Under the pieces are notes generated by a model. That model was not told where the DNA came from. It worked only from the letters and a program-made list of their open reading frames with translations, and made no database searches. 15,234 nt of DNA. Origin: Promethearchaeota archaeon. GTDB lineage: Archaea > Asgardarchaeota > Thorarchaeia > Thorarchaeales > Thorarchaeaceae. Below, one piece after another: positions 981-14,709 of the stretch (position 1 is the first letter of the stretch; every line of letters begins with the position of its first letter). Both the position numbers and the translations under genes were made by a program. The stretch is from NCBI GenBank assembly GCA_027031765.1, contig JALVPN010000080.1, forward strand, positions 1 through 15,234, written 5' to 3'.

Positions 981-1556
981 CTACTTGCGGCTGTCCATGT
1001 ACTTGCGGGCCTCCGCTTCTGCGTCCTCTGCCTCTCCATACTCAAATAGCCTCTTATGCGCCGTGGCCAGCAGCTCCCACACCTCCGCGTCCTTGGGCTG
1101 CATCCTCAGGTACAACTTGCAGTATTCCTTGACCCTGTCCCAGTCGCCGAGCTGCTCGTAGCACCGGGCACTGTAGTAGAGCGCACGTTTGTGGTCTCTC
1201 CTTGGGCCCATGAGCTCGTTGAACACCCTCAGTGCTTCTTCCCACTCCCCAGCCTCGTAGTACGCCATGCCCTCCTCGAACTTGGTCTCCATCTCACCGT
1301 AGTCTGACATCCTGGAGGCGATTGCACCGACAGTGGAGAGGGAGCCACAGCAGGCAACGATGGTTGCAATGGCCATTGCCATCCCCACCGCCATGGTCGG
1401 TGACACCGGCAGGATACCGTTCCCCCCCAGCCATGCAACGATGAGCCCTGCCACAACTATGAGCGCAACGAGCACTGCCAGACCACCGACCCCCAGCCCT
1501 CGCGGCAGGCCGGCTCCGACGCTCTCAGGTCCTCTGCTCTCAGGCTCCTCAATCAT
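981..1556 (-). CDS. Membrane-anchored TPR protein (two N-terminal TM helices, ~3 TPR-like units)
   Basis: ORF 981..1730 overlaps the upstream gene, so I place the start at ATG 1556 (MIEEPESR, 191 aa). Hydrophobic segments GLGVGGLAVLVALIVVAGLIVAWL and MAVGMAMAIATIVACCGSL are followed by TPR-type helices (FEEGMAYYEAGEWEEALRVFNEL; ALYYSARCYEQLGDWDRVKEYCKLYL; VWELLATAHKRLFEYGEAEDAEAEA). Confidence 0.8.
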   Translation of the reverse strand: MIEEPESRGPESVGAGLPRGLGVGGLAVLVALIVVAGLIVAWLGGNGILPVSPTMAVGMAMAIATIVACCGSLSTVGAIASRMSDYGEMETKFEEGMAYYEAGEWEEALRVFNELMGPRRDHKRALYYSARCYEQLGDWDRVKEYCKLYLRMQPKDAEVWELLATAHKRLFEYGEAEDAEAEARKYMDSRK

Positions 1557-1599
1557 ACACTCTGGTCTACTGCCGCCCCTTTTAGGTCTGATGAAACCC

Positions 1600-2250
1600 T
1601 CATTGCTGCATGTCATCATTCCTCTCAGCAGCCCGGGCACGTCCTGCCCTGCGTCTGTGCTCCTCTTCGAGGCGTCGTGAACGGAGCCTGTCACGTGCAA
1701 CCTGGAGCCACCGGTGCACACGCGGTGCAAGGGCCGGGTCGAGTGTCATGGCCAGCTCGGCATATGCTATCGCCCGCTCGTCGTCCTCCTCTATGAAGTG
1801 CGCATTGGCCTTGTTATAGAGTGCCTCAGCATAGTCAGGTCGCAGTGCCAGGGCGTGAGTATACGCCTCCATGGCCTTCCGTCCCTCGCCGAGCCTGGAG
1901 AACGTGTTGCCGAGGTTGTTCCAGCACTCCGCGTCCTCGGGTTCCAGCTCCAGCGCCCTCTCGTAGCACTTCCTCGCACCCTTGAAGTCCGCGAGCATGT
2001 ACAACACGTTGCCCTTGTTGTACCAGACCTCAAAGACCATGCTGTCAATGGCCAGCGCCTCGTCATACGCCTTTTCCGCCTCCTCCAACTGGTCGCACTC
2101 TGTCAGTGCAACCCCGAGGTTGTACCATCCTTCTATGGAGTCGGGGTGCTCCTCAGTATACTGCCTGAGCAACTCGACGGCCTCGTCGCTCATGCCGCTC
2201 TCTATCAGGGCGCACGCCCGGCGGATCCGTTCGTCGACGTGGTGGGCCAT
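1600..2250 (-). CDS. Soluble TPR-repeat protein (~5 repeats, basic C-terminal tail)
   Basis: Canonical 34-aa periodicity: GWYNLGVAL..LEEAEKAYDEALAID; VWYNKGNVL..FKGARKCYERALELEP; CWNNLGNTF..RKAMEAYTHALALRP; ALYNKANAH..ERAIAYAELAMTLDP. Confidence 0.92.
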   Translation of the reverse strand: MAHHVDERIRRACALIESGMSDEAVELLRQYTEEHPDSIEGWYNLGVALTECDQLEEAEKAYDEALAIDSMVFEVWYNKGNVLYMLADFKGARKCYERALELEPEDAECWNNLGNTFSRLGEGRKAMEAYTHALALRPDYAEALYNKANAHFIEEDDERAIAYAELAMTLDPALAPRVHRWLQVARDRLRSRRLEEEHRRRAGRARAAERNDDMQQ

Positions 2251-2436
2251 CTGTCATCGCTGCCACTCGTGTCCGGGGCCGGATAAGTATTGTCCAGTGT
2301 GCAGTGTCACTACTGGCATGCCCATTGTGCCCCCTCACCTGCCCTCGCGCCCTTCAGGACTGGCACAGTGATACGCTGTACCGTCTGTCGTCAGCATTGT
2401 GCGTCCGTCCACTGGCCAGCCCGGGGTGTGTCTGCC

Positions 2437-3288
2437 TCATAGTGGTCGTCGTCGACGGAACCGTGTGGGCCTGAGTCCATGTCGTTGTAGGACTGACATG
2501 GCCCGGTCGACGCCAGAGCCGATGTCCTCCGGCCGGTGTGCGTCCGAGCCCACGGTAAAGCGTGTCACACCGCGCTCGACCAGCGCAGACACCAGCGCCC
2601 TGCCGGGCATCGTGTCGCCGAGTCCCCATCTCACTGACGAGGCGTTCACCTCTGGGACGACACCACATTGGCGCAGGCTCTCGGCCACGGGGTCTACGTG
2701 TCCCTGCCACGCGTCCTCGACCGCGACACCATAGTGTGAGGTACCGTACCTCCGGTATATGTCAAGGTGCCCCAGCACATCGAACATCCGTGACTCGACA
2801 CACTCTACGACCAGTCCGAAGTAGGTCGATACGGTCCTCTCAAGACTACTAGATGCGAAGATGGCCCTTGCCTCGCGCTCGACAGAAATGGCATGCCTGT
2901 CAACGATGTGGACGGAACCGATCACGAGGTCGAAGTCAACGTCAAAGAACCCGTCCGGGAGTGCGGCTGCAACACCACGGTAGTAGTCCACCTCCGCACC
3001 CAGTAGTACGACGAGGCCACTGTCTGCATACCTGTCAGATGCCCCCTTTACTGCTGCCTCGTACTCCACTAGCCACTCCGGTGACGCGGCCGGCACCCAC
3101 TCCTTGCCCACGCGGACAATGCCGTCACTACGCCCCGGGAATGTGTCCACGTGCGTTGTGAAGCAGACCTCAGCGAGCCCGCGGCGGACTGCCTGTGCAC
3201 AGAACTCGTCAATGCTCCCGGTCGCGTCCACCGAGAAGTCAGGGTGCACATGATAGTCGACGCCCCACCTCTCGGCCGGTCCTGCCAT
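2437..3288 (-). CDS. PHP-domain phosphatase, histidinol-phosphatase (HisJ) family
   Basis: PHP metal-binding motifs in the expected order: DYHVH, CFTTH, GAEVDY, D-x-x-IGSVH, DVLGHLD, EVN, GSDAH. GGTGAGG lies upstream of the ATG. Substrate cannot be determined from sequence. Confidence 0.88.
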   Translation of the reverse strand: MAGPAERWGVDYHVHPDFSVDATGSIDEFCAQAVRRGLAEVCFTTHVDTFPGRSDGIVRVGKEWVPAASPEWLVEYEAAVKGASDRYADSGLVVLLGAEVDYYRGVAAALPDGFFDVDFDLVIGSVHIVDRHAISVEREARAIFASSSLERTVSTYFGLVVECVESRMFDVLGHLDIYRRYGTSHYGVAVEDAWQGHVDPVAESLRQCGVVPEVNASSVRWGLGDTMPGRALVSALVERGVTRFTVGSDAHRPEDIGSGVDRAMSVLQRHGLRPTRFRRRRPL

Positions 3289-3326
3289 CAGTGTCGTCCC
3301 TCACCGTCCGTGTGTCCTGCCACTCT

Positions 3327-4565
3327 TCAGAGCGGCTCCGTGCACACATCCGTGGCTGCTGGCCCGTTTACCGGCCTCTCTGTCAGGAAGGTGGCGGCCA
3401 CCCCGCCGGCGAAGCTCGTTACCACGAGGAAGATGATGGAGGCAGCCAGTCCGTATGTGTCGCCGATCAGTCCAAATAGCCATGGCGCCAGTGCTCCTGG
3501 GACTGCGCCGATGGAGAACAGCACGCCGAAGGCGAGCCCCCGGGCATGGGGCGGACTTATCTCCGTCTGGTAGGCCTGGCTCGCCGGTACACCGGCAAAA
3601 TATGTGAAGCCTATGCCGACCAGCACCACGATGAGGGCTGGTAGGTCGAGGGACAGGTTCAGCAGCAGCAGACATGGTGCCAGCAGCAACATCGACATGA
3701 CAATGAACGGCACCCGTTTCCCGACCCGGTCGGACACCCGCGCAAACACGAGCTCGCCGACCAGTCCTGCGGTCAACATTATGGTGGCCAGTATCCCGGA
3801 CGAGAGGGGCTCATAGCCATACCGCAGCGTCAGGTACAGTGGCATCAGCAGGGTGGTACACCTGAACGGTATCCCTCTCAGACCGGTGACGAGGAGCACG
3901 AGTACGAAGTCTCTTGTCCATACACTCCCGCTGGTCTCACTGTCAGTATGACCGTCTGCCGCCCCCGGCGGTACCTGTGGGGCCACCCTGCTCCTGCGTG
4001 AGAACACCATGAGGTAGAGTGTCGGCACGAATACGACCAGCCCGAGCATACCGAGTACGACCAGCGACGGCCGCCAGCCACCGAGGACTACCATCAGTGC
4101 GCTCCCCAAGAAGGGTGTGACTGCCACTCCCACAAGGCCGCCTGCAGCCTGTAGTCCGACAGCCTGTGCTCGTTCCTCCTCTGGGAACCTCTCAGACAGC
4201 GTGGGGAATGCCGACGGGTGGTAGGGCGAAACACCGAGGCCGAGGAGTACCTGGGCCGCTACCAGTATCCAGAGCCCAGTGGCCAGACTCGTGAATAGTA
4301 CCGCGATGGCCGAGAGGAGCACGCTGGCCGGGATGAACACGTCTCTCAGTCCACGGTCACCCAGTGGCCCAACTATGATGTGACACGCTGTCATTGTGAC
4401 CACGACTGCGCTCGTGGCAATCCCTACCTCGGTCAGTGAGAGCGAGAGGTCGGCCATGATCTCGGACAGGAACGGCGACAGTGCACCCGTATATACGTGG
4501 TTGAGAAAGTGTGCGAACATACACGCTACGAGCACGGCGATGGATGCTTTCCGGGTCTTGTCCAC
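3327..4565 (-). CDS. Major facilitator superfamily transporter
   Basis: About 12 hydrophobic segments in two halves. Motif-A-like GPLGDRG and ARVSDRVGKR, plus YHPSAFPTLSERFPEEERAQAVG. Likely start is GTG 4565 (VDKTRK) after GGTGAG; the ORF track begins at 4610. Confidence 0.9.
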   Translation of the reverse strand: MDKTRKASIAVLVACMFAHFLNHVYTGALSPFLSEIMADLSLSLTEVGIATSAVVVTMTACHIIVGPLGDRGLRDVFIPASVLLSAIAVLFTSLATGLWILVAAQVLLGLGVSPYHPSAFPTLSERFPEEERAQAVGLQAAGGLVGVAVTPFLGSALMVVLGGWRPSLVVLGMLGLVVFVPTLYLMVFSRRSRVAPQVPPGAADGHTDSETSGSVWTRDFVLVLLVTGLRGIPFRCTTLLMPLYLTLRYGYEPLSSGILATIMLTAGLVGELVFARVSDRVGKRVPFIVMSMLLLAPCLLLLNLSLDLPALIVVLVGIGFTYFAGVPASQAYQTEISPPHARGLAFGVLFSIGAVPGALAPWLFGLIGDTYGLAASIIFLVVTSFAGGVAATFLTERPVNGPAATDVCTEPL

Positions 4566-4638
4566 CTGCGTCGACTCACCAGTAGAGCTGTACCGCCCGT
4601 TGGCGCCCACCCTAGATTAAGGTCTATCGATGCCGGTC

Positions 4639-4727
4639 AAGAAAAGGCCACACGGACGGGAGTGCTCCCCGTGTGCGATGAGATGACCCGGGTGCGGCTG
4701 ACGGTCAGAAGTGTTCTGACCATCAGC
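4639..4727 (-). other. Two stem-loops followed by a TTTTCTT tract (terminator or structured RNA)
   Basis: Inverted repeat 4697-4727 (GCTGA-C-GGTCAGAA gtg TTCTGACC-A-TCAGC) forms a 14-bp stem with one U-G pair on the minus strand. Second hairpin 4649-4675 (CACACG..GGGA gtgc TCCC CGTGTG). Minus-strand TTTTCTT at 4645-4639. Confidence 0.55.
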
Positions 4728-4877
4728 TATCCGATTCCGACTCTTTTGTTTTCAAGACCTACGGCGACCTGCCTTATAAGTGGCCCAGACCAAGCAATCG
4801 AAGTGTTCCCACGTACACCTAGCCGCGTCACGCAACGGTCTTCTCGGGTAGCGATGGTCCTCTGGCAGTGTCCACGG

Positions 4878-6851
4878 TCAGAGCAGGCCGCACGTCCAGA
4901 GTACAATGCGGAGTGCTAGGCGTGCGTCCTGGCTACTATAGTACTCTCCGAGGAGTCCCCAGTTGTCGATGAAGAAGTTCGAGCCGGAAACGACAACTCT
5001 GCCGCCCCCGCTCGTCTCGAGTGCCCCAAGCACCGCATCACCCGCGTACTGGGCCAGCAGGACTGCGCCTGCGGGCAGGACTAGCGGTGCCCCATAGTAG
5101 TCAAAGGACGACACCCCCGTCGTGATGGGGTGGCTGTGAATGCTCGTCACTACGACCGGGTCACTACTGTCACGCCTGATGTAGTCGTCTGCAAGTGCAA
5201 TGCCTGTCCACTGGAGGAACTCGTTTGCGGACGCTATGTCGAGGCTTGAGTTGTCGAGGGCAGCCACGAACAGCCCGCCCCCATGTGTGACGTACTCCTC
5301 ATAGGCACTGGTCTCTTGGTCTGAGAACTCTATGGAGAAGAGGCTTGGTGATAGTGGGTCGGTCTCATTTGAGCCCCAAGCACAGGGGTCGAGGACGACG
5401 ACGCCGTCGTACCTGGCAAGTCTGTCAGCCGTTATCTCCGCCCTCTCCCTGATCTCGGTGACCGATATCCCACTGGCGGTGAGCAGCCTGTAGAGCTCCT
5501 TGAACTGTCCATAGGTCGTGTCAATGGTCCACGGTGTGTGTACTATGTCGAACGCCACCCTGGCCACCGCAGTCCCGGCTGTGATGTTCACCAGCAGTCC
5601 TGCCGTCCCAGCAGTCGCAGAGCTGAATGTGATGTTTGCCCAGTAGTTGGGCGTGCCGTCGTCAGGTATGGCTATTGTGAGCGTGACGTAGCCGGTCTGG
5701 TTCACGGTCACAGCACCGGGCAGGCTGAACACACCGGGTGTCGTTGACTGGACCTCGACACTATAGCTTGCAGTCCAGCTGTTGATGACCTCAATCTCGA
5801 ACGTGTAGTTGTCACCAAAGAAGAGGCGTTCAAAGTCGAGTGGCAGACTCCCCGGGTGGACGTATGTGACTGGTGGCCTGTTGCCCGTGGTGGCCTCCTC
5901 CTGCAACAGTGCGAGGGCGGCATCGGCATTGAGCTTCCCGGCCCCCACAACGTACTCCGGGTATGGCATCTCGGTCGCACCGGCCATCAGTACTGCCTTC
6001 ACCATCCCCGGTGTCCAGGGTATGTCGTTGGTCACGCAGTAATCAATCACTCTGGCCGCTGCCGCTGCGACCCGTGGTGCTGAAAAGCTCGTGCCGACGT
6101 ACATCTTGTTGCCGTGCACCACATAGCCCCTGGCTGCAATGTCGGGCTTCATTGTCCGGCCGGCCGTTGGGCCCCAGCTTGAGTAGTGTGCTGGCATCCC
6201 CGACTCGTTGAGGGCCGCTGCTGCGATTGCGTACTGGAACACTGCTGGTGAGTTGATACTGTTCCCCCGGATGCCGTGGTCTCCCTCGTTGCCGGCCGCC
6301 GCGACCACGACCACGCCGTGTCGGAAGGCCCACTCAACTATGTCTCTCATGGAGTCGTAGATGGTAGGAGTTGACCCAAGGCTGAGGTTGATCACATCGA
6401 CGCCCTGTTCCACGGCCCACTGGATGGCCGCAATGATTGCGGGTGAGGTCGCATGCCCCTCGTTGTCCAAGACCTTTGCAATGACGAGTCGTGCACTGCT
6501 CGCCCCGCTCAGTATTGTTTCGGCAACGATGGTGCCATGGGGTACGCCGCCTGGCCGTGTGTCGTCTGTTGACAGGTCGTTGCCGCTATACCCGTAGACT
6601 GTCCTGATGAAGCTCTGTCTGGCGACGACCCTCTGCTCCTCCACATAGTTCAGGTCGGCCCCGGAGTCGACCACTGCCACCCGCCCCGCGGTGCCGGTAG
6701 GTGCACCACCGGGCGGGTTCAAGAACAGGTACACCGAGGCACTCCCGATGAACAACATGAGGATGATCATCACGCCGACGAGTTTCACTACAGTGGAGGA
6801 GTCAGACTCCGCCGTCTCATTGTAGTAGGGTTCCCAGTAGTGAGTCCTCAA
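4878..6851 (-). CDS. Membrane-anchored S8 subtilase with Site-1-protease-like (MBTPS1/SKI-1) C-terminal domains
   Basis: Complete catalytic set: VAVVDSG (Asp, codon 6668-6666), HGTIVA (His), AAGNEG (oxyanion Asn), GTSFSAP (Ser), plus DVINLSLG, SSWGP and MKPDI. One N-terminal TM helix (VVKLVGVMIILMLFIGSASVYLFL). A beta-rich domain and an alpha/beta GATase-like domain follow the catalytic domain. Likely start is TTG 6851 with GGTGAT at 6855-6860 (657 aa); the ORF track begins at 7001. Confidence 0.88.
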   Translation of the reverse strand: MRTHYWEPYYNETAESDSSTVVKLVGVMIILMLFIGSASVYLFLNPPGGAPTGTAGRVAVVDSGADLNYVEEQRVVARQSFIRTVYGYSGNDLSTDDTRPGGVPHGTIVAETILSGASSARLVIAKVLDNEGHATSPAIIAAIQWAVEQGVDVINLSLGSTPTIYDSMRDIVEWAFRHGVVVVAAAGNEGDHGIRGNSINSPAVFQYAIAAAALNESGMPAHYSSWGPTAGRTMKPDIAARGYVVHGNKMYVGTSFSAPRVAAAAARVIDYCVTNDIPWTPGMVKAVLMAGATEMPYPEYVVGAGKLNADAALALLQEEATTGNRPPVTYVHPGSLPLDFERLFFGDNYTFEIEVINSWTASYSVEVQSTTPGVFSLPGAVTVNQTGYVTLTIAIPDDGTPNYWANITFSSATAGTAGLLVNITAGTAVARVAFDIVHTPWTIDTTYGQFKELYRLLTASGISVTEIRERAEITADRLARYDGVVVLDPCAWGSNETDPLSPSLFSIEFSDQETSAYEEYVTHGGGLFVAALDNSSLDIASANEFLQWTGIALADDYIRRDSSDPVVVTSIHSHPITTGVSSFDYYGAPLVLPAGAVLLAQYAGDAVLGALETSGGGRVVVSGSNFFIDNWGLLGEYYSSQDARLALRIVLWTCGLL

Positions 6852-7062
6852 GCAATCACCATCGCAGTGGCGCAGCAGTGCTGAACTGCATCCTACGGCC
6901 CGCCGGGAGCAACAAATGCAAAAGAACCTATCGGAGGCGAACATGCCTGTCCTCCCGTAGTGCGCAGCCCTTCCCACCGACCAGGACTCGGAAACCTTCA
7001 ATAGGTGGTGTGCCCTCCCCTGCTTGGAGCAGGGTATGAAGTGTCGACTCGCTACAATTTCA

Positions 7063-7068
7063 TTTATC
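7063..7068 (+). promoter_or_regulatory. Putative TATA box for the P-type ATPase gene
   Basis: TTTATC within an AT-rich patch about 40 nt upstream of ATG 7109, in a divergent intergenic region. Confidence 0.4.
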
Positions 7069-7108
7069 AGTCAGTGCGACACTCGACTACCTAGTTAGAG
7101 GGAACCAC

Positions 7109-10039
7109 ATGACCATGACTGACGCCGCCTCAAGTGTACCCTCCGAGGAGAACGCCTACCACGCCATTCCCCTAGAAGAGCTGCTCCGGGTGCTACGTGT
7201 CGACCCGACGACCGGCCTTCCTCAGGACGAGGTGAGGACGAGACTGGCCCAGTATGGCCCGAACAGTATCCCAAAGGTGAAGGGCTCATTCTGGAAGGTC
7301 TACCTCGCACCAATCCTGAACTGGCTGATCAACATCTATCTTGTGAGCTCCTTCGCACTCGTCATCATTGCATGGCTGTTCCCTATGCTTGAGGCCACCT
7401 CCGAGAACCCCATGGCCCAGGCTGGCTTCTGGCTCAGCATTGTAGCCGTAAACTGCCTTGTCGCCATATTCCAGCAGTTCAGGGCCCAGAAGAAGCTCGA
7501 GGCCCTTGAGAAGCTCTCTGCAGGGGAGGCCCGCGTGCTCAGGGACGGTGTCGAGAAGAAGGTGAACCCCGAAGAGATTGTACCCGGGGACATCGTGAAG
7601 CTCGAACAGGGCGACCGGATCCCCGCCGACGCGCGCATCATCACTGCCACCAACCTGACCACAAATGAGGCTTCGCTGACTGGTGAGAGCGTCCCCTCGG
7701 TGAAAGATGGGTCAGCTGTTGTGGCACCGGATGCAGCCCTCTCCGACCGTGCCAACATGGTCTTCTTCGGTACGTACGTGTCCACAGGCACCGCCACCGT
7801 GGTGGTGGTCGTCACAGGCGGCCGCACAGAGATTGGCAAGATACAGGGCGAGCTCGAGTCATTGAACACAGGGGACATCCCACTGCGCAAGAAGGTCAAC
7901 CTCCTCGCAAAGTACCTCGGCATAGCTGCACTCATCCTGCTGTTCACATCTTTCCTATGGGTGGTCGTCTTTGGCCCGCTGCTACATGGCGAGCCACTCG
8001 ACCTTGACACCACCGTCATCGCATGGCGCATGTCACAGGCCATCACCAGCGCCATGATGATTATGCCCATCAACATCCCGCTCCTCACAACCATCGTGCT
8101 CCTCACCGGCGTCCTCGCAATGGCACGGGAAGGGGTCATCATCAGGGACCTCTCCGCAGTGGAGAGCCTTGGCCGTGTCAGTGTCATATGCTCTGACAAA
8201 ACAGGCACCATGACCCGCAACCAGATGACCGTGAAGTTCTGCTGGGACACTGAGAACCTGTACTACATCACAGGCGATGGGTACGAGCCGAAGGGCGAGA
8301 TTTTCCGGCTCAAGGAACCGTCCGTACTGGACAAGGTCGATGCGACCGACAGGGTCCGCGTCACGGATGTCCTCGGCTGGAAGGGCCTGTACAGACTGAT
8401 CACGTCAGGTGGCATCAACAACGACGCGGAACTCACCGTGAGGGACATCCCCGGACAGGGCACGGTGTGGATGCCGATTGGAGACCCGACCGATGCAGCA
8501 CTCCTGACCCTGTTCCGCAAGAGTGGTCTCGACGAGCAGGAGCTCCGTGGGCGTTTCAAGGTCGTAAAGGAGTTCCCCTTCGACTCAGAGCTCAAGCGCA
8601 TGTCCAAGGTCTGTGAGGACGGCGACGAGTTCATCGCGTTCGTCAAGGGCGCCACAGAGGTCATACTACCACGGTGCACCATGAAGAACGCCCCCGGCCG
8701 TCCTGTCCCCCTCACCTCTGACGACATCGCTGAGATAGAGGCCCTGTCCACGGCATTCGCCGCGAAGGGCTATCGAGTGATATCAGTGGCCTACCGTCAG
8801 CTCAGGCGCGTCCCTGAAGGGCCCAGTGCACGTGACGTGGTCGAGAACGACCTGGTCTACCTCGGCTTCACATGCCTAGTCGACCCACCACGCGAGGGTG
8901 TCCGGGAGGCTGTCAACGCATGCCACAGTGCTGGCATCGAGGTGGTCATGATCACCGGCGATGCAGCAGCCACCGCCAAGACGATTGCCCGCGACCTGAA
9001 CAGCCGCGACGAGGACTCCCTCGTGGTGGAGGGCAGCCAGATCGAGTCGCTGAGTGAAGAGGACTTTGCTCGCGTCAACGTGTTCGCCCGTGTGAACCCT
9101 GCGCACAAGCAGGTCATCGTTGAGAGGTACCAGCGACTGGAGAAGGTCGTCGCAATGACCGGTGATGGTGTCAATGACGCCCTCGCCCTCGCAATGAGCG
9201 ATGCCGGGATTGCAATGGGGATTACGGGCACCGATGTCGCAAAGGAGGCAGCAGACCTTGTGATCACCGATGACAGCTTTGCCTCCATCGTCACCGGGGT
9301 GCACCAGGGCCGTGGCCTCTTCAGCAAGATCCGCAACATGATATACTTCTATGTGTCAATCAACCTCTTTGAGAGCATCCTGTTCTTCGGTGCACTGTTC
9401 CTCCTACCACCGTACTTTGTGTTCCTTGAGACCTGGCAGAAACTCTACCTTGTCGGTACCAGCCATGTCTTCCCGGGCCTCGCACTGGTGTTCGACAAGA
9501 CGTCACCGCACGCCATGGAAGAGAAGCCGCGCGACAGCGAAGAGATCATCACACGGCCCATTGCAGAGTTCATGGCCCTGCACGTAGTCCTCATGGCCGC
9601 CGGTGCTGCGACCGTGTACTTCCTGACCCTCACCGGTTTCATGGGCATCGTCGACATCTATCCCGGGAACCTCACCGGCTACTATGGCGGGATGGTCGAT
9701 GCACGGATGAAGGCTGCGGTCATGCTACTGACGGTCATCCTCTTGGTAGAGAGCTGGGTCGTCCTCATAATCCGCCGGATGAACATGCCGATGTCAAAGG
9801 CCCTGCGCGAGCCCGGCTATAGGCTCTACGTGGTACTGATAGGCCTGATATACGTGGCCCACCTCCTGCTCATGTATGTCCCCCTGGTACAGGCCATACT
9901 GGCAGTCTACGGCCTTGAGTTCTTCTTTGTCCCACTGACGCTCTGGGACTGGACGGTGTGCATTGTTGCTGTCGTCCCTGTGGTCATCGGCATGGAGGCC
10001 TACAAGAAGTACCTGCGCTCACGCGACGTGACCCTGTAG
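7109..10039 (+). CDS. P-type ATPase with a type II (SERCA-like) scaffold, 10 TM helices and non-canonical transport-site residues
   Basis: GDRIPAD, NEASLTGES (7679-7690), CSDKTGT (Asp363, 8195), GDPTDAAL, FDSELKRMS, KGATE, DPPR, MITGD, FARVNP and TGDGVND are all present. M4 reads PINIP, M5 SINLFE, M6 VGTSHVFP. Confidence 0.95.
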   Translation: MTMTDAASSVPSEENAYHAIPLEELLRVLRVDPTTGLPQDEVRTRLAQYGPNSIPKVKGSFWKVYLAPILNWLINIYLVSSFALVIIAWLFPMLEATSENPMAQAGFWLSIVAVNCLVAIFQQFRAQKKLEALEKLSAGEARVLRDGVEKKVNPEEIVPGDIVKLEQGDRIPADARIITATNLTTNEASLTGESVPSVKDGSAVVAPDAALSDRANMVFFGTYVSTGTATVVVVVTGGRTEIGKIQGELESLNTGDIPLRKKVNLLAKYLGIAALILLFTSFLWVVVFGPLLHGEPLDLDTTVIAWRMSQAITSAMMIMPINIPLLTTIVLLTGVLAMAREGVIIRDLSAVESLGRVSVICSDKTGTMTRNQMTVKFCWDTENLYYITGDGYEPKGEIFRLKEPSVLDKVDATDRVRVTDVLGWKGLYRLITSGGINNDAELTVRDIPGQGTVWMPIGDPTDAALLTLFRKSGLDEQELRGRFKVVKEFPFDSELKRMSKVCEDGDEFIAFVKGATEVILPRCTMKNAPGRPVPLTSDDIAEIEALSTAFAAKGYRVISVAYRQLRRVPEGPSARDVVENDLVYLGFTCLVDPPREGVREAVNACHSAGIEVVMITGDAAATAKTIARDLNSRDEDSLVVEGSQIESLSEEDFARVNVFARVNPAHKQVIVERYQRLEKVVAMTGDGVNDALALAMSDAGIAMGITGTDVAKEAADLVITDDSFASIVTGVHQGRGLFSKIRNMIYFYVSINLFESILFFGALFLLPPYFVFLETWQKLYLVGTSHVFPGLALVFDKTSPHAMEEKPRDSEEIITRPIAEFMALHVVLMAAGAATVYFLTLTGFMGIVDIYPGNLTGYYGGMVDARMKAAVMLLTVILLVESWVVLIIRRMNMPMSKALREPGYRLYVVLIGLIYVAHLLLMYVPLVQAILAVYGLEFFFVPLTLWDWTVCIVAVVPVVIGMEAYKKYLRSRDVTL

Positions 10040-10070
10040 CCTGACTGTGACGGACCTCAACAGTGGTGTC

Positions 10071-12026
10071 ATGACCGTGACACAGCTCGGTCCTGTGGAG
10101 CTACCACCTCCTACACTCCTACTCGCAGTGGTCCTGTGCCTGACGGTCATTGCCACGCTCATCGCATGGGCGTACCGAACGCGTCAGCACCAGGTGGCCG
10201 TCCTTGAGAGACTGCTGTCCCAACAGGCCGTTGTCACACTGCCGGAGCTCGCTCAGGCCCTCAGTTCGCCACGCCTGGACCGCCGGACGCTGGTTTCCAT
10301 CGCCCACCAGTGTGGGGCCGCCCTGCTCAGCGTCGGCTCATCAAAGGTGGTCTCACGGCCCCTCCTCCGACAGAGGTTACACCACCTGCTCACAGAAGAT
10401 GCAGTGGTCCACGTGTCCCGCGTGGCCGACCAGTACGACATCCCTGACGGCGTGGTGGCAGCCCTCGTCGAGGACATCGCAGAGGCGGAGCGTCTGGACG
10501 TCGTGCGCACAACAGATGGCGACTACATCTTCGTCCCAGACCTCAAGGCCCGTATCCGGGATGTGCTCGCCTTGCACGGCCGTGTCGACCTGGCATCCGA
10601 GGCACAGCGCATGCGGGTGGGTGCTGACGACCTCCTTGGGCTTGTCCAGCGCTGGGGGTGGCGCCTGCTCGAGACCGACAATAACGTGGTGTTCTCCGCC
10701 GACTGGCTCAAGGACACCCTGAGTCGCATTGTTTCCAGAGCCGGCCACCTTGACATCGGGGCCGCAGCCGAAGAGATTGGGGTCACCCGACTGGAACTGA
10801 TGCGGTTCATCCGAGACCTGGGATGGGAAATGGTGACCACAGACGATGGCCACTGGGTGCCCAGGAGCGTCCTGCTCAGCTCCCTGCGGTCAGAGCTGTC
10901 TGCCGGCCGTCCCATGCAGTATGGGGCGCTGGCCACAGCACTGGCGGTGGACCGGAAGACCCTGGAAGACCTCCTGGATGACCTTGAGGAGGAGCTCGAG
11001 GTGGTGCGCACCAGTTCCCACGTGTTCTCTGCCGTGTACCTGCGTCAGAGGCTTGCTGGGGAGCTACAACGCAAGGGCAAGGTCGACCCGGAGGAGGTTG
11101 CCCGCCGCTATGGTGTTGCCGCTGACAGTATTGTCGGGGCGATGCGCGGCCTCCCGGACACGAGAGTGGCGAAGAGTGGGACCGTGGTATATCTCCCGGC
11201 CCTCCGTAAGTGGGTCACCGACCGGGCGCTCCGAAAGGGTATCATCACCGCCCGCGACGCTGCCTGGTGGGGCCTGTCACAGGTCGAGATGTCCTTCCTC
11301 CTGAAACGGTTCGACCTGCGCTTCATCCTCTCAAGAGGGGGCGACTGTATTGCTCTCGCGTGGGTCAACCGGTATGTGGAGTCGGAGATCAACGCAGGGC
11401 GCACAGTGGACGTCGAGTCGTTGGCCAGCCGCTTTGATATTGAGCCTGGAGTCGCTGAGGCACTCCTGTCCCAGGTCGAGGCCGACGCGGTCTTTACAAG
11501 AACGGGCAGACTGGTGCCGCGACAGCAGCTGGTCAAGGAGCTGTCATCCACCCTCGACCGTTCGGGCTTCATCGACCCTACAACTACCGCCCAGGCCCTC
11601 GGACTGGAGCCCTCGGTGGTCTCTCACATCGTCGAGTCGCTCAGCCAGCACCCGCTGCGTACGCGCGCTGGGAACTACGTCACAGAAGAGGCCATCCTAC
11701 GTCGTGCACGCTGGCATCTCGACAACAAAGGGTTCTACGATGTCCATGCATGGGCCGTGCACCTCGACATCGAAGTGGAGGAACTGTTGGGCGTCCTGTC
11801 CCCTGTACTGAGACCTGGCGAGCACTTTGTGGGCCCTGCTGGCCTCCTGGTAACAGACGAGTTCGTGGCATCCCTCCGCCGACTGGCACGCCGCCCTAAT
11901 GGACTCCCTGTGACCACTCATGCAAAGCACCTTGGGATGCGGCGTGGGGCGCTCATGGCACTGCTGCGTGACAGCGTGGAGGGGAAGTACGAGTCGCGCT
12001 CTGACAGGTACGTGTCGAGCACCTGA
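10071..12026 (+). CDS. Single-pass membrane protein with ~11 tandem winged-helix-like repeats (UFL1/DDRGK1-like)
   Basis: One TM helix (TLLLAVVLCLTVIATLIAWAY) followed by repeats of about 55 aa: helix - G-x-[VIL]-[DT] - helix - helix - beta hairpin (T-x-D/x-G-x-[YVW]-[IV]). Start at ATG 10071 (or GTG 10047), 31 nt after the ATPase stop. The repeats are visible in the sequence; the family assignment is inference. Confidence 0.8.
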   Translation: MTVTQLGPVELPPPTLLLAVVLCLTVIATLIAWAYRTRQHQVAVLERLLSQQAVVTLPELAQALSSPRLDRRTLVSIAHQCGAALLSVGSSKVVSRPLLRQRLHHLLTEDAVVHVSRVADQYDIPDGVVAALVEDIAEAERLDVVRTTDGDYIFVPDLKARIRDVLALHGRVDLASEAQRMRVGADDLLGLVQRWGWRLLETDNNVVFSADWLKDTLSRIVSRAGHLDIGAAAEEIGVTRLELMRFIRDLGWEMVTTDDGHWVPRSVLLSSLRSELSAGRPMQYGALATALAVDRKTLEDLLDDLEEELEVVRTSSHVFSAVYLRQRLAGELQRKGKVDPEEVARRYGVAADSIVGAMRGLPDTRVAKSGTVVYLPALRKWVTDRALRKGIITARDAAWWGLSQVEMSFLLKRFDLRFILSRGGDCIALAWVNRYVESEINAGRTVDVESLASRFDIEPGVAEALLSQVEADAVFTRTGRLVPRQQLVKELSSTLDRSGFIDPTTTAQALGLEPSVVSHIVESLSQHPLRTRAGNYVTEEAILRRARWHLDNKGFYDVHAWAVHLDIEVEELLGVLSPVLRPGEHFVGPAGLLVTDEFVASLRRLARRPNGLPVTTHAKHLGMRRGALMALLRDSVEGKYESRSDRYVSST

Positions 12027-13424: not shown

Positions 13425-14573
13425 TCATCTGCGTATCTCTTCCCTGAGCCTTGAGGCCGAGAACTCATGGACGCGCTCCCTGGCCTCCTCGCGGGCCTCC
13501 CTGTGATGTTCCATGAACTCGACCACCCTTGGTGCCAGCATCTGTTTGCACTCGCCACACAGCAGTTCGCCGCCCCTGCACTTGCGCTCCAGCTCTGCCA
13601 GTTCCCTGTCGTTGGGCATGAAGATGAACTTGAAGAAGCTGAACACCGAGCACACCTCAGGGACACCACCCATCTCTCTCTGCTCCTTGACGGTCGTCCT
13701 CCCGCCAGTGAATGCTGCCATGATCTTCTTCCGGATGAGTGCTGGTGTGTCGGTTGTGTACACACCTGACATCGGGTCTGAGGACGACATCTTTCCGCCC
13801 TCCAGCAGTCCGGGGACGAACTTGCTGAGGACTGTGGCGGGCTTGTAGTAGCCGATCTTCTCGGCCACGTCCCGGGTCACCCGCCAGTGTGGGTCCTGGT
13901 CGATGGCGCAGGGGATCAGGCACGGTGTCCTCTCACCCGTGAGCCACGAGTGCAGGAATGCTGGCACGGCCTGGATGCTCGGATAGAAGATGCCACCGAT
14001 GTTCATACTGTTGTCGAACCCGAACACAGCACGGGCAGTGGAGAACGTGACCCGCTTCGCCACCTGGACTGCAATCTCATACATCAGGTCTATGTGCTCA
14101 ACATCACGCAGGATGAATGTCTTCTCCGGGTCAAAACCAATGGCAATTATGTCGAGGATGTTCTCGTCTGCGAGCTGCTGGACCTTCTCGAAGCTCAGAC
14201 CCTGCTCGAACCAGAACTTCTCATCGTTCGTGATCTGGAAGTACAGTCGCGTGTCGAAGGAGTCCTGGAGCCACTTCGTGAACAGCCATGGCACCAGGTG
14301 TCCGAGGTGTACCTCCCCGCTGGGGCCACGGCCGGTGTACAGGGTGAACTTGACGCCCCTGTCATACATGTCGAGGACCCAGTCCAGGCCCCGGTGTGAG
14401 AAGAACAGCTCCCTCTCCAGCAGGAAGTGGCTGCCGCCCGCCGCCCGGGTGAGCCGTTCCCGTAGCTGCGGTGTTATGAGTTGTGTCCCAAACTGCTCGA
14501 CCAGTCGGTCGTAGTCTACCTTACCGCGGACTTCCCACGGTGTCACGACCATCTCGTCATTGTCCTCTGACAT
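13425..14573 (-). CDS. trpS: Tryptophanyl-tRNA synthetase, archaeal/eukaryal type
   Basis: VTPWEV, YTGRGPSGEVHLGH (HIGH), QITNDEK, IPCAIDQDPHW, KMSSS and AFTGG. Likely start is ATG 14573 (MSEDNDE, 382 aa); TTAATT at 14649-14644 is a candidate TATA box. Confidence 0.97.
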   Translation of the reverse strand: MSEDNDEMVVTPWEVRGKVDYDRLVEQFGTQLITPQLRERLTRAAGGSHFLLERELFFSHRGLDWVLDMYDRGVKFTLYTGRGPSGEVHLGHLVPWLFTKWLQDSFDTRLYFQITNDEKFWFEQGLSFEKVQQLADENILDIIAIGFDPEKTFILRDVEHIDLMYEIAVQVAKRVTFSTARAVFGFDNSMNIGGIFYPSIQAVPAFLHSWLTGERTPCLIPCAIDQDPHWRVTRDVAEKIGYYKPATVLSKFVPGLLEGGKMSSSDPMSGVYTTDTPALIRKKIMAAFTGGRTTVKEQREMGGVPEVCSVFSFFKFIFMPNDRELAELERKCRGGELLCGECKQMLAPRVVEFMEHHREAREEARERVHEFSASRLREEIRR

Positions 14574-14709
14574 TGCTGTGTCCTTCTTCTGAGTGCTCTT
14601 CGGTGCACTGGACGACCGTCCGTCATCTCCCACTGCGTCGTACAATTAAGCGTGCTGGTCTCAGGCACAGCACTGCCCTCCTCTCTCGGTCCTCCCTTCC
14701 CACAGGGCT

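Follow-up and report, generated by a model that had tools for sequence, protein, structure and literature searches.

An archaeal P-type ATPase family, mostly of Asgard archaea, with a PINIP motif and a histidine at calcium-site positions of SERCA-type pumps

P-type ATPase subfamilies are defined by the residues of their transport sites. Only one family (P6) has been added to the scheme since 1988, and more are predicted from prokaryotes (Palmgren 2023, PMC10654040). A pump gene in a Thorarchaeote, lying in the 15,234-nt stretch of DNA that was analysed (the window), raises the question of what is transported by a protein that has the build of a Ca2+-ATPase but has lost several of the side chains that bind Ca2+, and whether it belongs to any described class. 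Direct translation of the gene (Table 1) placed its stop codon at 10037–10039, and the product passed the Pfam cut-offs for Cation_ATPase_N, E1-E2_ATPase, Cation_ATPase, Hydrolase and Cation_ATPase_C (all five). [quoted passage not shown] Its score with the superfamily model TIGR01494, 261 bits, lies above the cut-off of 62. The hinge motif carries L692, which is found in 81% of the family, whereas Pro occupies this position in 58/59 canonical pumps. An AlphaFold2 model (pLDDT 85.5) gave a predicted 10-TM P2 fold, with SPCA1, SERCA, Na,K-ATPase and H,K-ATPase as the best fold matches. From its sequence, the pump looks catalytically competent.

Table 1. Features of the pump locus, in window coordinates
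Feature	Position	Strand	Remark
TTTATCA, TATA-box-like, inferred promoter	7063..7069	+	~40 nt 5' of ATG; read from sequence
P-type ATPase gene (P0001)	7109..10039	+	single open frame, 976 aa, stop codon included
M1 segment A67-P-I-L-N71	7307..7321	+	replaces (D/A)-Q-F-K-D entry motif
M2 Q122-Q123	7472..7477	+	SERCA Q108-E109; canonical P2A, P3A, P3B have Q/E/H then Glu
TGES, A-domain dephosphorylation motif, T191-S194	7679..7690	+	G192, E193 invariant in family alignment A1
M4 motif P320-I-N-I-P324	8066..8080	+	replaces PEGLP; I321 = SERCA E309, N322 = G310
DKTGT, phosphorylation motif	8195..8209	+	D363 is the phosphorylated Asp; invariant in family alignment A1
KGA, N-domain	8645..8653	+	K513 is the nucleotide-binding Lys; K513, G514 invariant in family alignment A1
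TGD, P-domain, T616-D618	8954..8962	+	invariant in family alignment A1
GDGVNDALAL, hinge motif	9161..9190	+	GDGVND at 9161-9178; canonical pumps have GDGVNDAPAL
M5 N752-L-F-E755	9362..9373	+	SERCA N768, E771 kept
M6 Y780-L-V-G-T-S-H786	9446..9466	+	V782 = SERCA N796, S785 = T799, H786 = D800
M8 E881	9749..9751	+	SERCA E908 position
Downstream gene	10047..12026	+	659-aa protein; starts 8 nt past pump stop

The residues on which the original prediction was built (PINIP, N752, E755, V782, S785, H786 and E881) were all confirmed, with their coordinates, by direct translation, and its by-eye mapping onto SERCA was reproduced by HMMER alignment to LMCA1, the solved Listeria Ca2+-ATPase, which set PINI opposite PEAL and the His of 'lvgtsHvfP' opposite the Asp of 'nlvnDslP'. 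Family-wide frequencies were then taken from 42 diverse members and 59 canonical pumps. Glu at the E309 position was found in 0/42 family members compared with 59/59 canonical pumps, its place always being taken by a bulky hydrophobic residue (I/V/L/F/W); the N322 position was Asn in 38/42 members and Gly in 52/59 canonical pumps, and the family consensus of M4 reads P(I/V/F/L/W)N(I/L/F)P. In M6, the D800 position was His in 40/42 (Asp in 56/59 canonical pumps) and the N796 position Tyr, Val, Phe or Ile (Asn in 57/59). E755 was present in 42/42 members and invariant in alignment A1, N752 was present in 37/42, and the E881 position was Glu in 39/42, compared with Gln in 37 and Glu in 17 of the 59 canonical prokaryotic pumps. 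The original list of site residues stands except in two respects: S785, its T799 equivalent (T784-S785-H786 are coded by 9458–9466), is not a conserved ligand, as this position was Thr in 15, Val in eight, Ala in seven and Ser in six of the 42 members, and the conserved N322 had not been singled out.

The replacements extend to the cytoplasmic entry, where the QFxD motif of M1 becomes APxxN, with P68 in 37/42 members (Gln in 57/59 canonical pumps) and N71 in 35/42 (Asp in 33/59). At the M2 Glu position, 35/42 members had Gln and none had Glu, compared with Glu in 59/59 canonical pumps; this Glu is present in the P3A and P3B references as well. The TPLQ of canonical pumps reads IPLR in the family. 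In all, five residues that are ~97–100% conserved in canonical pumps are replaced in the family: E309, N796, D800, the M1 Gln and the M2 Glu. On this mapping, Ca2+ site II has been stripped of its side chains and site I has changed, as had been claimed, with E309, N796 and D800 replaced and the N768 and E771 equivalents kept, and the acidic entry residues of M1 and M2 are neutralised. The AlphaFold2 model was used for secondary structure only, and side-chain geometry was inferred from the SERCA mapping. P2 pumps unwind M4 and M6 to form the ion site, and the helix breaks of the model fall at the same places (M4 at 319–321 and M6 at 786–787). The pocket remaining at the unwound M4/M6 is predicted to comprise E755 and N752 from M5, N322 from M4, H786 from M6 and E881 from M8.

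A one-off degeneration, in which homologues would keep PEGLP and the M6 Asp, failed against 121 close homologues (63–70% identity), all of which have PINIP, N752, E755 and H786, and 120 of which have E881. The site signature marks ~37 clusters (50% identity) and reaches down to ~34% identity. Since the PINIP/His pattern is kept both in the 121 homologues and in the 42 diverse members, it is not the product of chance or of an assembly error; the alignments indicate strong purifying selection on the site residues. The only subclade to lose the His (L105, P0141) has H786 and E881 jointly replaced by Gln, together with Ser for both N322 and N752, and E755 unchanged. The joint replacement, seen in one subclade of two sequences, would be expected if the His and the Glu formed a coupled pair. 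The make-up of the pocket differs within the family: N322 varies in some members (Ser, Thr or Met) and E881 apparently varies in a group reading AIP; one subclade combines Met at the N322 position with an additional Asp following the His (PIMIP ... HD). The neutralised M1/M2 entry, the non-conserved T799 position and the joint H786Q/E881Q subclade add to what the original prediction had described.

In an LG+G4 tree built with care on P2A-like, P3A, P3B and P1B references, the family was monophyletic (100/100) and grouped with the canonical P2A-like pumps (100/100), P3A, P3B and P1B falling outside this group and the order within the P2A-like clade not being settled by the tree. The tree originally called for was thus realised in part, placing the family with P2A-like pumps and outside P3A, P3B and P1B, with P2B, P2D, P4 and P5 compared through NCBIfam scores only; a search of 61 genomes for reference sequences yielded no P2C pump. 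A quick tree had nested the family within canonical P2A, an arrangement that was dropped, as the AU test favoured the canonical pumps together (lnL +91, p-AU 0.96).

The best sequence matches by HMMER were P2A Ca2+-ATPases (LMCA1, 7e-117; SPCA1 and SERCA, ~1e-103), with which the pump shares the domain set, TGES, 10 TM helices and the equivalents of N768, E771 and E908. It differs from them in PEGLP, in the hydrophobic residue for N796, the His for D800, the neutralised entry, NDALAL and IPLR, and it missed the P2A equivalog cut-offs (TIGR01116, 412.9 vs 703.4; TIGR01522, 448.2 vs 798.3), with PINIP for PEGLP and V782 and H786 for the M6 Asn and Asp. The P3A model TIGR01647 gave 319.8 against a cut-off of 615.5, and the M6 Asp (D684) and M5 basic residue of that class are absent; the P3B (MgtA) model TIGR01524 gave 322 against 611, the references having PEMLP where the pump has PINIP. 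For P4 (TIGR01652), the score was 92.8 against 431, with TGES rather than DGET and N..E without Lys in M5, and for P5 (TIGR01657) it was 220 against 618, with PINIP rather than PP(E/A)LP. The P6 pump CtpE, a Ca2+ importer of Mycobacterium, is also a P2-like pump without the M6 Asp (PMC10654040). CtpE, however, retains PEGL, with Ile in place of the M6 Asp and no N-domain Lys, whereas the present pump has PINIP, His786 and the invariant K513. The residue combination fits no described P2, P3, P4, P5 or P6 signature, so that the original claim for P2 to P5 was upheld by class cut-offs and residues alike. PINIP as a motif was not found in the literature, and a search for Asgard P-type ATPases found only a generic listing and nothing describing the family.

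Among 400 genomes of the host phylum, a profile search found a family member in at least 285 (at least 71%), spread over at least 17 of the 33 GTDB families. These are lower bounds, as only matches with E = 0 were counted; canonical PEGLP pumps score up to ~890 bits (E ~1e-267) with the family profile and divergent members ~1000 bits. Generic DKTGT and GDGVND patterns recovered almost only canonical pumps and were of no use for the distribution. Two of 401 sampled Thermoproteota genomes had a member, and homologues were named as Thor-, Loki-, Hel- and Odinarchaeota. The family is old and mostly Asgard-archaeal. The host genome also encodes a separate canonical paralog (PEGLP/NFDE/NLATD), and four other genomes had a family match plus further matches in the canonical range, by score alone, suggesting that the family has its own job. 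The host encodes three P1B-type heavy-metal ATPases as well. At the locus, the 659-aa downstream protein has a single TM helix at its N terminus as well as repeats of a winged-helix-like module; in another genome of Thor its gene and the end of the pump gene overlap by 20 nt. The gene adjoins the pump in Thorarchaeota only and is missing beside it at 20 loci of other lineages. Across 25 loci there was no family-wide conserved neighbour, and no conserved operon partner or regulator pointing to an ion; the recurrent neighbours (ABC ATPase, DUF362, TFIIB and M24 peptidase) reflect lineage synteny or are generic.

On balance, we lean towards an active pump of the P2A lineage whose site has been rebuilt for one small ion, with His786 as a ligand or a built-in counter-charge. 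Such a pump would retain the ordinary E1/E2 phosphoenzyme cycle; site II would be emptied by Ile for E309 and Val, Tyr or Phe for N796, the bridging D800 would become His786, and one small cation or proton would bind in the E755-centred pocket. His786 would serve as a titratable ligand or as a built-in counter-charge partnering E881/E755 when the site is empty, and therefore, we propose, no counter-ion would be needed. We infer the individual residue roles, the stoichiometry and the transport direction. Comparable built-in charges are the Lys of ZntA, KdpB and H,K-ATPase, the Arg of AHA2 and LMCA1 and the His of P1B-4 pumps. Built-in counter-ions are an established recurring device, and the M6 His at the ion site of P1B-4 pumps has been proposed as an internal counter-ion (Palmgren 2023, PMC10654040). 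We propose that H786 is functionally analogous to this His, although P1B-4 pumps (sCoaT/PfeT type) have 6–8 TM helices, SPC in M4 and HEGxT in M6 and show no close sequence relationship.

The ion is probably a small one other than calcium, and the original view that the substrate is uncharacterised was supported. We tentatively place H+ or a monovalent cation first, and leave a small share to substrates outside the classes weighed here. The family and P3A pumps may both have a single protonatable centre, and the E309 position is hydrophobic in both, prokaryotic P3A references having PVALP or PVGLP; plant and fungal P3A pumps have PIAMP. However, P3A pumps (AHA2, Pma1 and archaeal) keep the M6 Asp, the M5 basic residue and the M2 Glu, where the family has His, N..E and Gln. 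With rather more reserve, we consider that the Glu-His-Glu pocket could define an undescribed, mostly Asgard subclass of possibly new P2/P3 chemistry, carrying either a transition metal or H+/one cation with the His as counter-ion. Transport by such a subclass may be inward, because the cytoplasmic cation funnel is gone; the neutralised funnel could mean uptake from outside or, alternatively, phosphorylation without a cytoplasmic-ion trigger.

A divalent transition metal is possible but somewhat doubtful. H786, E755, E881 and N322/N752 would coordinate one Mn2+, Fe2+, Zn2+, Co2+ or Ni2+-type ion, exported or imported by anaerobes that live in metal-rich sediments and vents. His, carboxylates and Asn form the classical ligand set of borderline metals, which would fit the pocket, so that the His could be either a counter-charge or a direct ligand. 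The subclade with Met and an additional Asp (PIMIP ... HD), the Mn2+ transport of the related SPCA/PMR1 pumps and the occurrence of the window DNA in a hydrothermal-vent metagenome point the same way. This metagenome, which may itself be the source of the DNA, was the only data set listed as containing it; no RNA data set was listed. Against this reading, the protein lacks both an M4 Cys and a metal-binding domain at either terminus, the host already has its three P1B pumps, the acidic funnel that would help to attract a divalent ion is neutralised, no metal regulator was found next to the gene at the 25 loci, and P2 scaffolds otherwise belong to hard-cation pumps.

A one-ion Ca2+ (or Mg2+) pump with an unusual ligand set is unlikely. 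E309, N796 and D800 are each essential for Ca2+ binding in SERCA, by mutagenesis, and all three are replaced throughout the history of the family; to our knowledge, every single-site Ca2+ pump (SPCA, PMCA and LMCA1) keeps site II and not site I, whereas the family keeps a site-I-like pocket. All curated Ca2+-pump cut-offs were missed widely, and the coexisting canonical Ca2+-type paralog, with the canonical-range matches in the four other genomes, also speaks against it. In its favour are the closest relatives in sequence and structure, which are Ca2+ pumps, the kept equivalents of the site I residues N768, E771 and E908, the public annotation of family proteins as Ca2+-transporting ATPases and the putative Ca2+ ATPases listed in a Saier-lab survey of Asgard archaea (PMC7997004).

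Slightly less likely again is a non-ion substrate, such as the headgroup of an archaeal lipid or a segment of peptide moved as in P4/P5 pumps, with the hydrophobic E309 position as the gate. This position resembles the Ile after the M4 Pro in P4 flippases (PISL vs PINI), and a neutralised funnel would be expected if phosphorylation were independent of a cytoplasmic ion. However, prokaryotic P3A pumps with PVALP are hydrophobic there too, so that the residue is not diagnostic of flipping, and the A domain has TGES rather than DGET. As in ion pumps, conservation of the buried Glu, His and Glu is strict, M5 has no Lys, and the family groups with Ca2+-type, P2A-like pumps, scoring 93 bits with the P4 model (cut-off 431) and 413–448 bits with the P2A models, besides falling far below the P5 cut-off. 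No PF03381 (CDC50) match was found in the 95%-complete host genome, in a search without a positive control, as the control genomes gave none either. P4 pumps have been described as eukaryote-only (PMC10654040). Taken together, nothing points to the lipid or peptide substrate originally suggested, and the idea that the pump might inform on how flippases arose was not sustained: the family appears to bear no mark of a lipid flippase and, on present evidence, has no bearing on flippase origin. Finally, an ATPase that has degenerated or does not transport, whether as a paralog in decay or as a protein with a regulatory role only, would explain the lost classical Ca2+ ligands but is highly improbable, as the replacement residues are themselves conserved to ~34% identity, the catalytic motifs are all intact and the gene is full-length and in at least 285/400 phylum genomes.

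The preferred reading, a P2A-lineage pump rebuilt for one small ion, concerns a family with a wide spread across the archaeal phylum nearest to eukaryotes, whose members are routinely misannotated as 'Ca2+-transporting ATPase'. Inferences on Ca2+ handling in Asgard archaea that are based on its genes are unsafe. The family is also a natural experiment in which site II has been erased and the bridging Asp changed to His, which lets the parts played by the E309 gate, by built-in counter-charges and by site I be tested directly. Present in at least 71% of phylum genomes beside a canonical Ca2+-type paralog, the pump should meet an overlooked housekeeping need for ion transport in these anaerobes.

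The 976-amino-acid protein encoded by the pump gene contains all five Pfam domains typical of a P2/P3-type cation pump. The original prediction had mapped its unusual transport-site residues on to SERCA by eye, and this register was reproduced by a HMMER alignment with the solved Listeria pump LMCA1, in which PEAL corresponds to PINI and the M6 aspartate to His786. An AlphaFold2 model built from a 53-sequence family alignment (mean pLDDT 85.5) gave SPCA1, SERCA and the Na,K/H,K-ATPases as top fold matches (TM-score 0.7-0.8), and its helices were broken at residues 319-321 (M4) and 786-787 (M6), the canonical ion-site geometry. Since the coordinates, the LMCA1 register and the modelled breaks agree, the odd residues do lie where they had been placed.

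Coordinates of the pump gene, its motifs, neighbouring genes and two related loci
Feature	Position	Strand	Remarks
PHP gene	2437-3288		within S8/MFS/PHP/TPR block
MFS gene	3327-4610		within S8/MFS/PHP/TPR block
Subtilase gene (Peptidase_S8)	4878-7001	-	707 aa, divergent to pump; weak ThuA-like C-terminal part
TTTATCA, TATA-like, putative	~40 nt upstream of pump gene	+	sequence
P-type ATPase gene	7109-10039	+	single open frame, 976 codons
TGES	7679-7690	+	direct translation
PINIP (M4)	8066-8080	+	direct translation
DKTGT	8195-8209	+	direct translation
KGA	8645-8653	+	direct translation
TGD	8954-8962	+	direct translation
GDGVND	9161-9178	+	direct translation
N752/E755 (M5)	9362-9373	+	direct translation
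T784-S785-H786 (M6)	9458-9466	+	direct translation
E881 (M8)	9749-9751	+	direct translation
Downstream gene	10047-12026	+	659 aa, 8 nt past pump; one N-terminal TM helix, many winged-helix-like modules
L105, variant pump	G400:C12:277766-280681		genome labelled Bathyarchaeota; PVSIP in M4, S..E in M5
L002, host canonical P2A paralog	G000:C59:6691-8940		motifs read through M6, directly beyond which the bases are masked

More than 120 clusters, most of them named Thorarchaeota, came up at 63-70% identity in a word-indexed search. PINIP, Asn752, Glu755, Thr784 and His786 were retained in all 121 close homologues and Glu881 in 120/121, showing that PINIP and the M6 histidine are a family trait and no accident. 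When 1.84 billion cluster representatives were searched exhaustively with HMMER, the ~37 best clusters, down to ~34% identity, had P(I/V/L/F/W)N(I/L/F)(P/V) in M4 and N..E in M5, with a histidine in M6 and a glutamate in M8; the edge of the family was sharp, with all matches below ~500 bits reading PEGLP, N..E and NLVTD instead. Named members came from Thor-, Loki-, Hel- and Odinarchaeota, 'Promethearchaeota' and one 'Korarchaeota' MAG, the taxonomic label of which may be questionable. On contigs of this MAG (L009 and L010) the pump adjoins an Arf/Ras/Roc small GTPase and a TrpRS/TyrRS-type synthetase; the window likewise has a tRNA-synt_1b gene near the pump (13425-14645, - strand).

Residues were compared position by position between 42 family members and the 59 canonical pumps closest to them. 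The M4 glutamate, present in 59/59 canonical pumps and 0/42 family members, is replaced by Ile, Val, Phe, Leu or Trp, and the M4 glycine by Asn in 38/42; in M6, the asparagine (57/59 canonical) gives way to Tyr, Val, Phe or Ile, and the aspartate (56/59 canonical) to His in 40/42. The M5 Asn and Glu are retained (Glu in 42/42), and the M8 position is Glu in 39/42 family members versus mostly Gln (37) rather than Glu (17) in the 59 canonical prokaryotic pumps. The position of SERCA Thr799 is variable (T15, V8, A7 and S6 of 42), and the conserved polar core therefore consists of Asn322, Asn752, Glu755, His786 and Glu881 plus Gln777. The canonical M1 motif Q-F-x-D, which we take to be Gln56-Asp59 of SERCA1a, becomes (A)P(I/L)xN (Gln in 57/59 canonical pumps, Pro in 37/42 family members), and the M2 Q-E pair, SERCA Gln108-Glu109, becomes Q-Q, the glutamate being present in 59/59 canonical pumps and also in the P3A and P3B references. 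Residues at these SERCA positions line the cytoplasmic Ca2+ entry funnel, which is neutralised in the family, a change beyond those originally listed. Further family marks are the change of GDGVNDAPAL to ALAL, that of TPLQ to IPLR, and an RR pair where M8 ends.

In a careful maximum-likelihood tree of 62 rows, 21 were family members and 31 canonical pumps, seven of the latter from Asgard genomes; four prokaryotic P3A and three P3B pumps, each above its NCBIfam cut-off, were added as references, and the host genome's three P1B pumps formed the outgroup. The family was monophyletic (support 100/100) with a stem length of 0.42 substitutions per site, and together with the canonical P2A-like pumps it formed a clade (100/100) that left P3A, P3B and P1B outside. 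Branching order within this clade was not settled, with the canonical pumps grouping together in 64% of bootstrap replicates; nesting of the family among them, seen in a quick tree, was not upheld (AU test, p-AU 0.96 for the canonical-together tree). The pump scored 413-448 bits against the P2A models of NCBIfam, 320 against P3A and P3B, 220 against P5 and 93 against P4, below the cut-off in each case. As the scores agree with the tree, in which P3A, P3B and P1B were the other classes, the family is an old and distinct branch of the P2A-like lineage. The tree references included archaeal P3A-type H+-ATPase homologues (L137-L141; genomes of 0.5-1.3 Mb, of the class of genome G402) that pass the TIGR01647 cut-off and have PVALP or PVGLP in M4, Lys or Arg in M5 and Asp in M6.

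We ran the family profile against 400 genomes, each representing one species of the phylum to which the window belongs, with membership counted at E = 0 (>~1000 bits; canonical pumps score up to ~890 bits on the same profile). At least 285 of the 400 had such a match, representing 17 of 33 GTDB families; in ten genomes, each from a different one of the remaining families, the best match was a canonical PEGLP/NLVTD pump, and the family is therefore widespread in the phylum, not universal. Only 2/401 sampled Thermoproteota genomes carried a member, one an ordinary PINIP/His pump and the other a variant of the L105 type. Besides three P1B-type heavy-metal pumps, the host genome (2.95 Mb, 95% complete) encodes a canonical paralog at 39% identity (PEGLP, NFDE and NLATD), and four other whole genomes combined a family match with at least one further match in the canonical range, judged by score only. 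This coexistence in the same genomes argues for a separate function of the family rather than a drifted Ca2+ pump.

In SERCA, Glu309, Asn796 and Asp800 are each indispensable for binding two Ca2+ ions, which makes a SERCA-like Ca2+ cycle very unlikely for a pump with this sequence. Where M4 and M6 unwind, one pocket would be left, made up of two carboxylates, two amides and one imidazole, favouring a one-ion pump with Glu755 as the central acceptor. His786 may serve as a ligand or as a titratable built-in counter-charge, the latter a proposal modelled on the counter-ions (Lys, Arg or His) of ZntA, KdpB, H,K-ATPase, AHA2, LMCA1 and P1B-4 pumps (PMC10654040). A coupled His/Glu pair predicts joint loss of both residues, as in the Bathyarchaeia-type subclade (locus L105 and protein P0141), where N322S, N752S, H786Q and E881Q occur all together with Glu755 kept.

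For the pumped ion, H+ or a monovalent cation is our tentative choice, in line with the neutralised funnel, a net site charge of -1 with the histidine protonated, a hydrophobic residue at the Glu309 position as in P3A pumps, and a housekeeping-like distribution. A divalent transition metal, to which the His/carboxylate ligand set, a Met variant in one subclade and metal-rich habitats point, is somewhat unlikely. That subclade, with PIMIP in M4 and Asp directly after the M6 histidine, is more metal-like. Ca2+ or Mg2+ is improbable even with Ca2+ pumps as the nearest relatives, and a non-ion substrate, suggested by the hydrophobic Glu309 position, is the least probable of these. Transport may run inward, which would suit the loss of the cytoplasmic funnel. 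The originally predicted rebuilding of the site stands, but its proposed bearing on the origin of flippases finds no support: the hydrophobic residue after the M4 proline is the sole P4 resemblance and recurs in prokaryotic P3A proton pumps (PVALP), whereas the A domain has TGES, not DGET, the buried Glu, His and Glu are conserved, M5 is without Lys, the P4 model gives those 93 bits and the tree places the family with Ca2+-type pumps. A CDC50 search of the host genome, run without a positive control, gave no match.

Head-to-tail pairs of family pumps occur in some Asgard lineages (L013, 2923-8871; L119, L122, L129, L130 and L134), combining a PINLP-type copy (INDSLAL or INDAPAL) with a PINIP-type copy (VNDALAL); the L118 pair (1187-7495) consists of two PINIP-type copies. 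Such pairing of types suggests paralogs that have sub-functionalised.

Gene context offers no clue to the ion or the direction: across 25 pump loci, no neighbour was conserved family-wide. The pump and the downstream gene may be co-transcribed. The S8/MFS/PHP/TPR block is syntenic with another Thorarchaeote (L008), a synteny at lineage level only. The downstream protein has weak Pfam matches to E3_UFM1_ligase, ANT and PheRS_DBD1; its counterpart overlaps the pump stop by 20 nt in that Thor genome (L008, 8921-10921) and is absent beside the pump in other Asgard lineages.

Literature searches, including 'PINIP' as a term, found no paper describing this family. An Asgard transporter survey has no entry beyond 'putative Ca2+ ATPase' (PMC7997004), a paper on ER-calcium evolution does not treat the family (PMC7016017), and a 2023 review recognizes classes P1-P6 only (PMC10654040). 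P6 (CtpE) has PEGL with the M6 Asp changed to Ile (PMC10654040), whereas the present family has PINIP with Asp changed to His, a different solution. New here are the phylum-wide distribution figures and the tree with P3A, P3B and P1B references, as well as the neutralised funnel at the cytoplasmic entry, the variability at the Thr799 position, the coupled H/E-to-Q/Q variant and the canonical paralog alongside. Taken together, these sequences mark the family as a subfamily of P2A origin whose transport site has been rebuilt into a single ion site.
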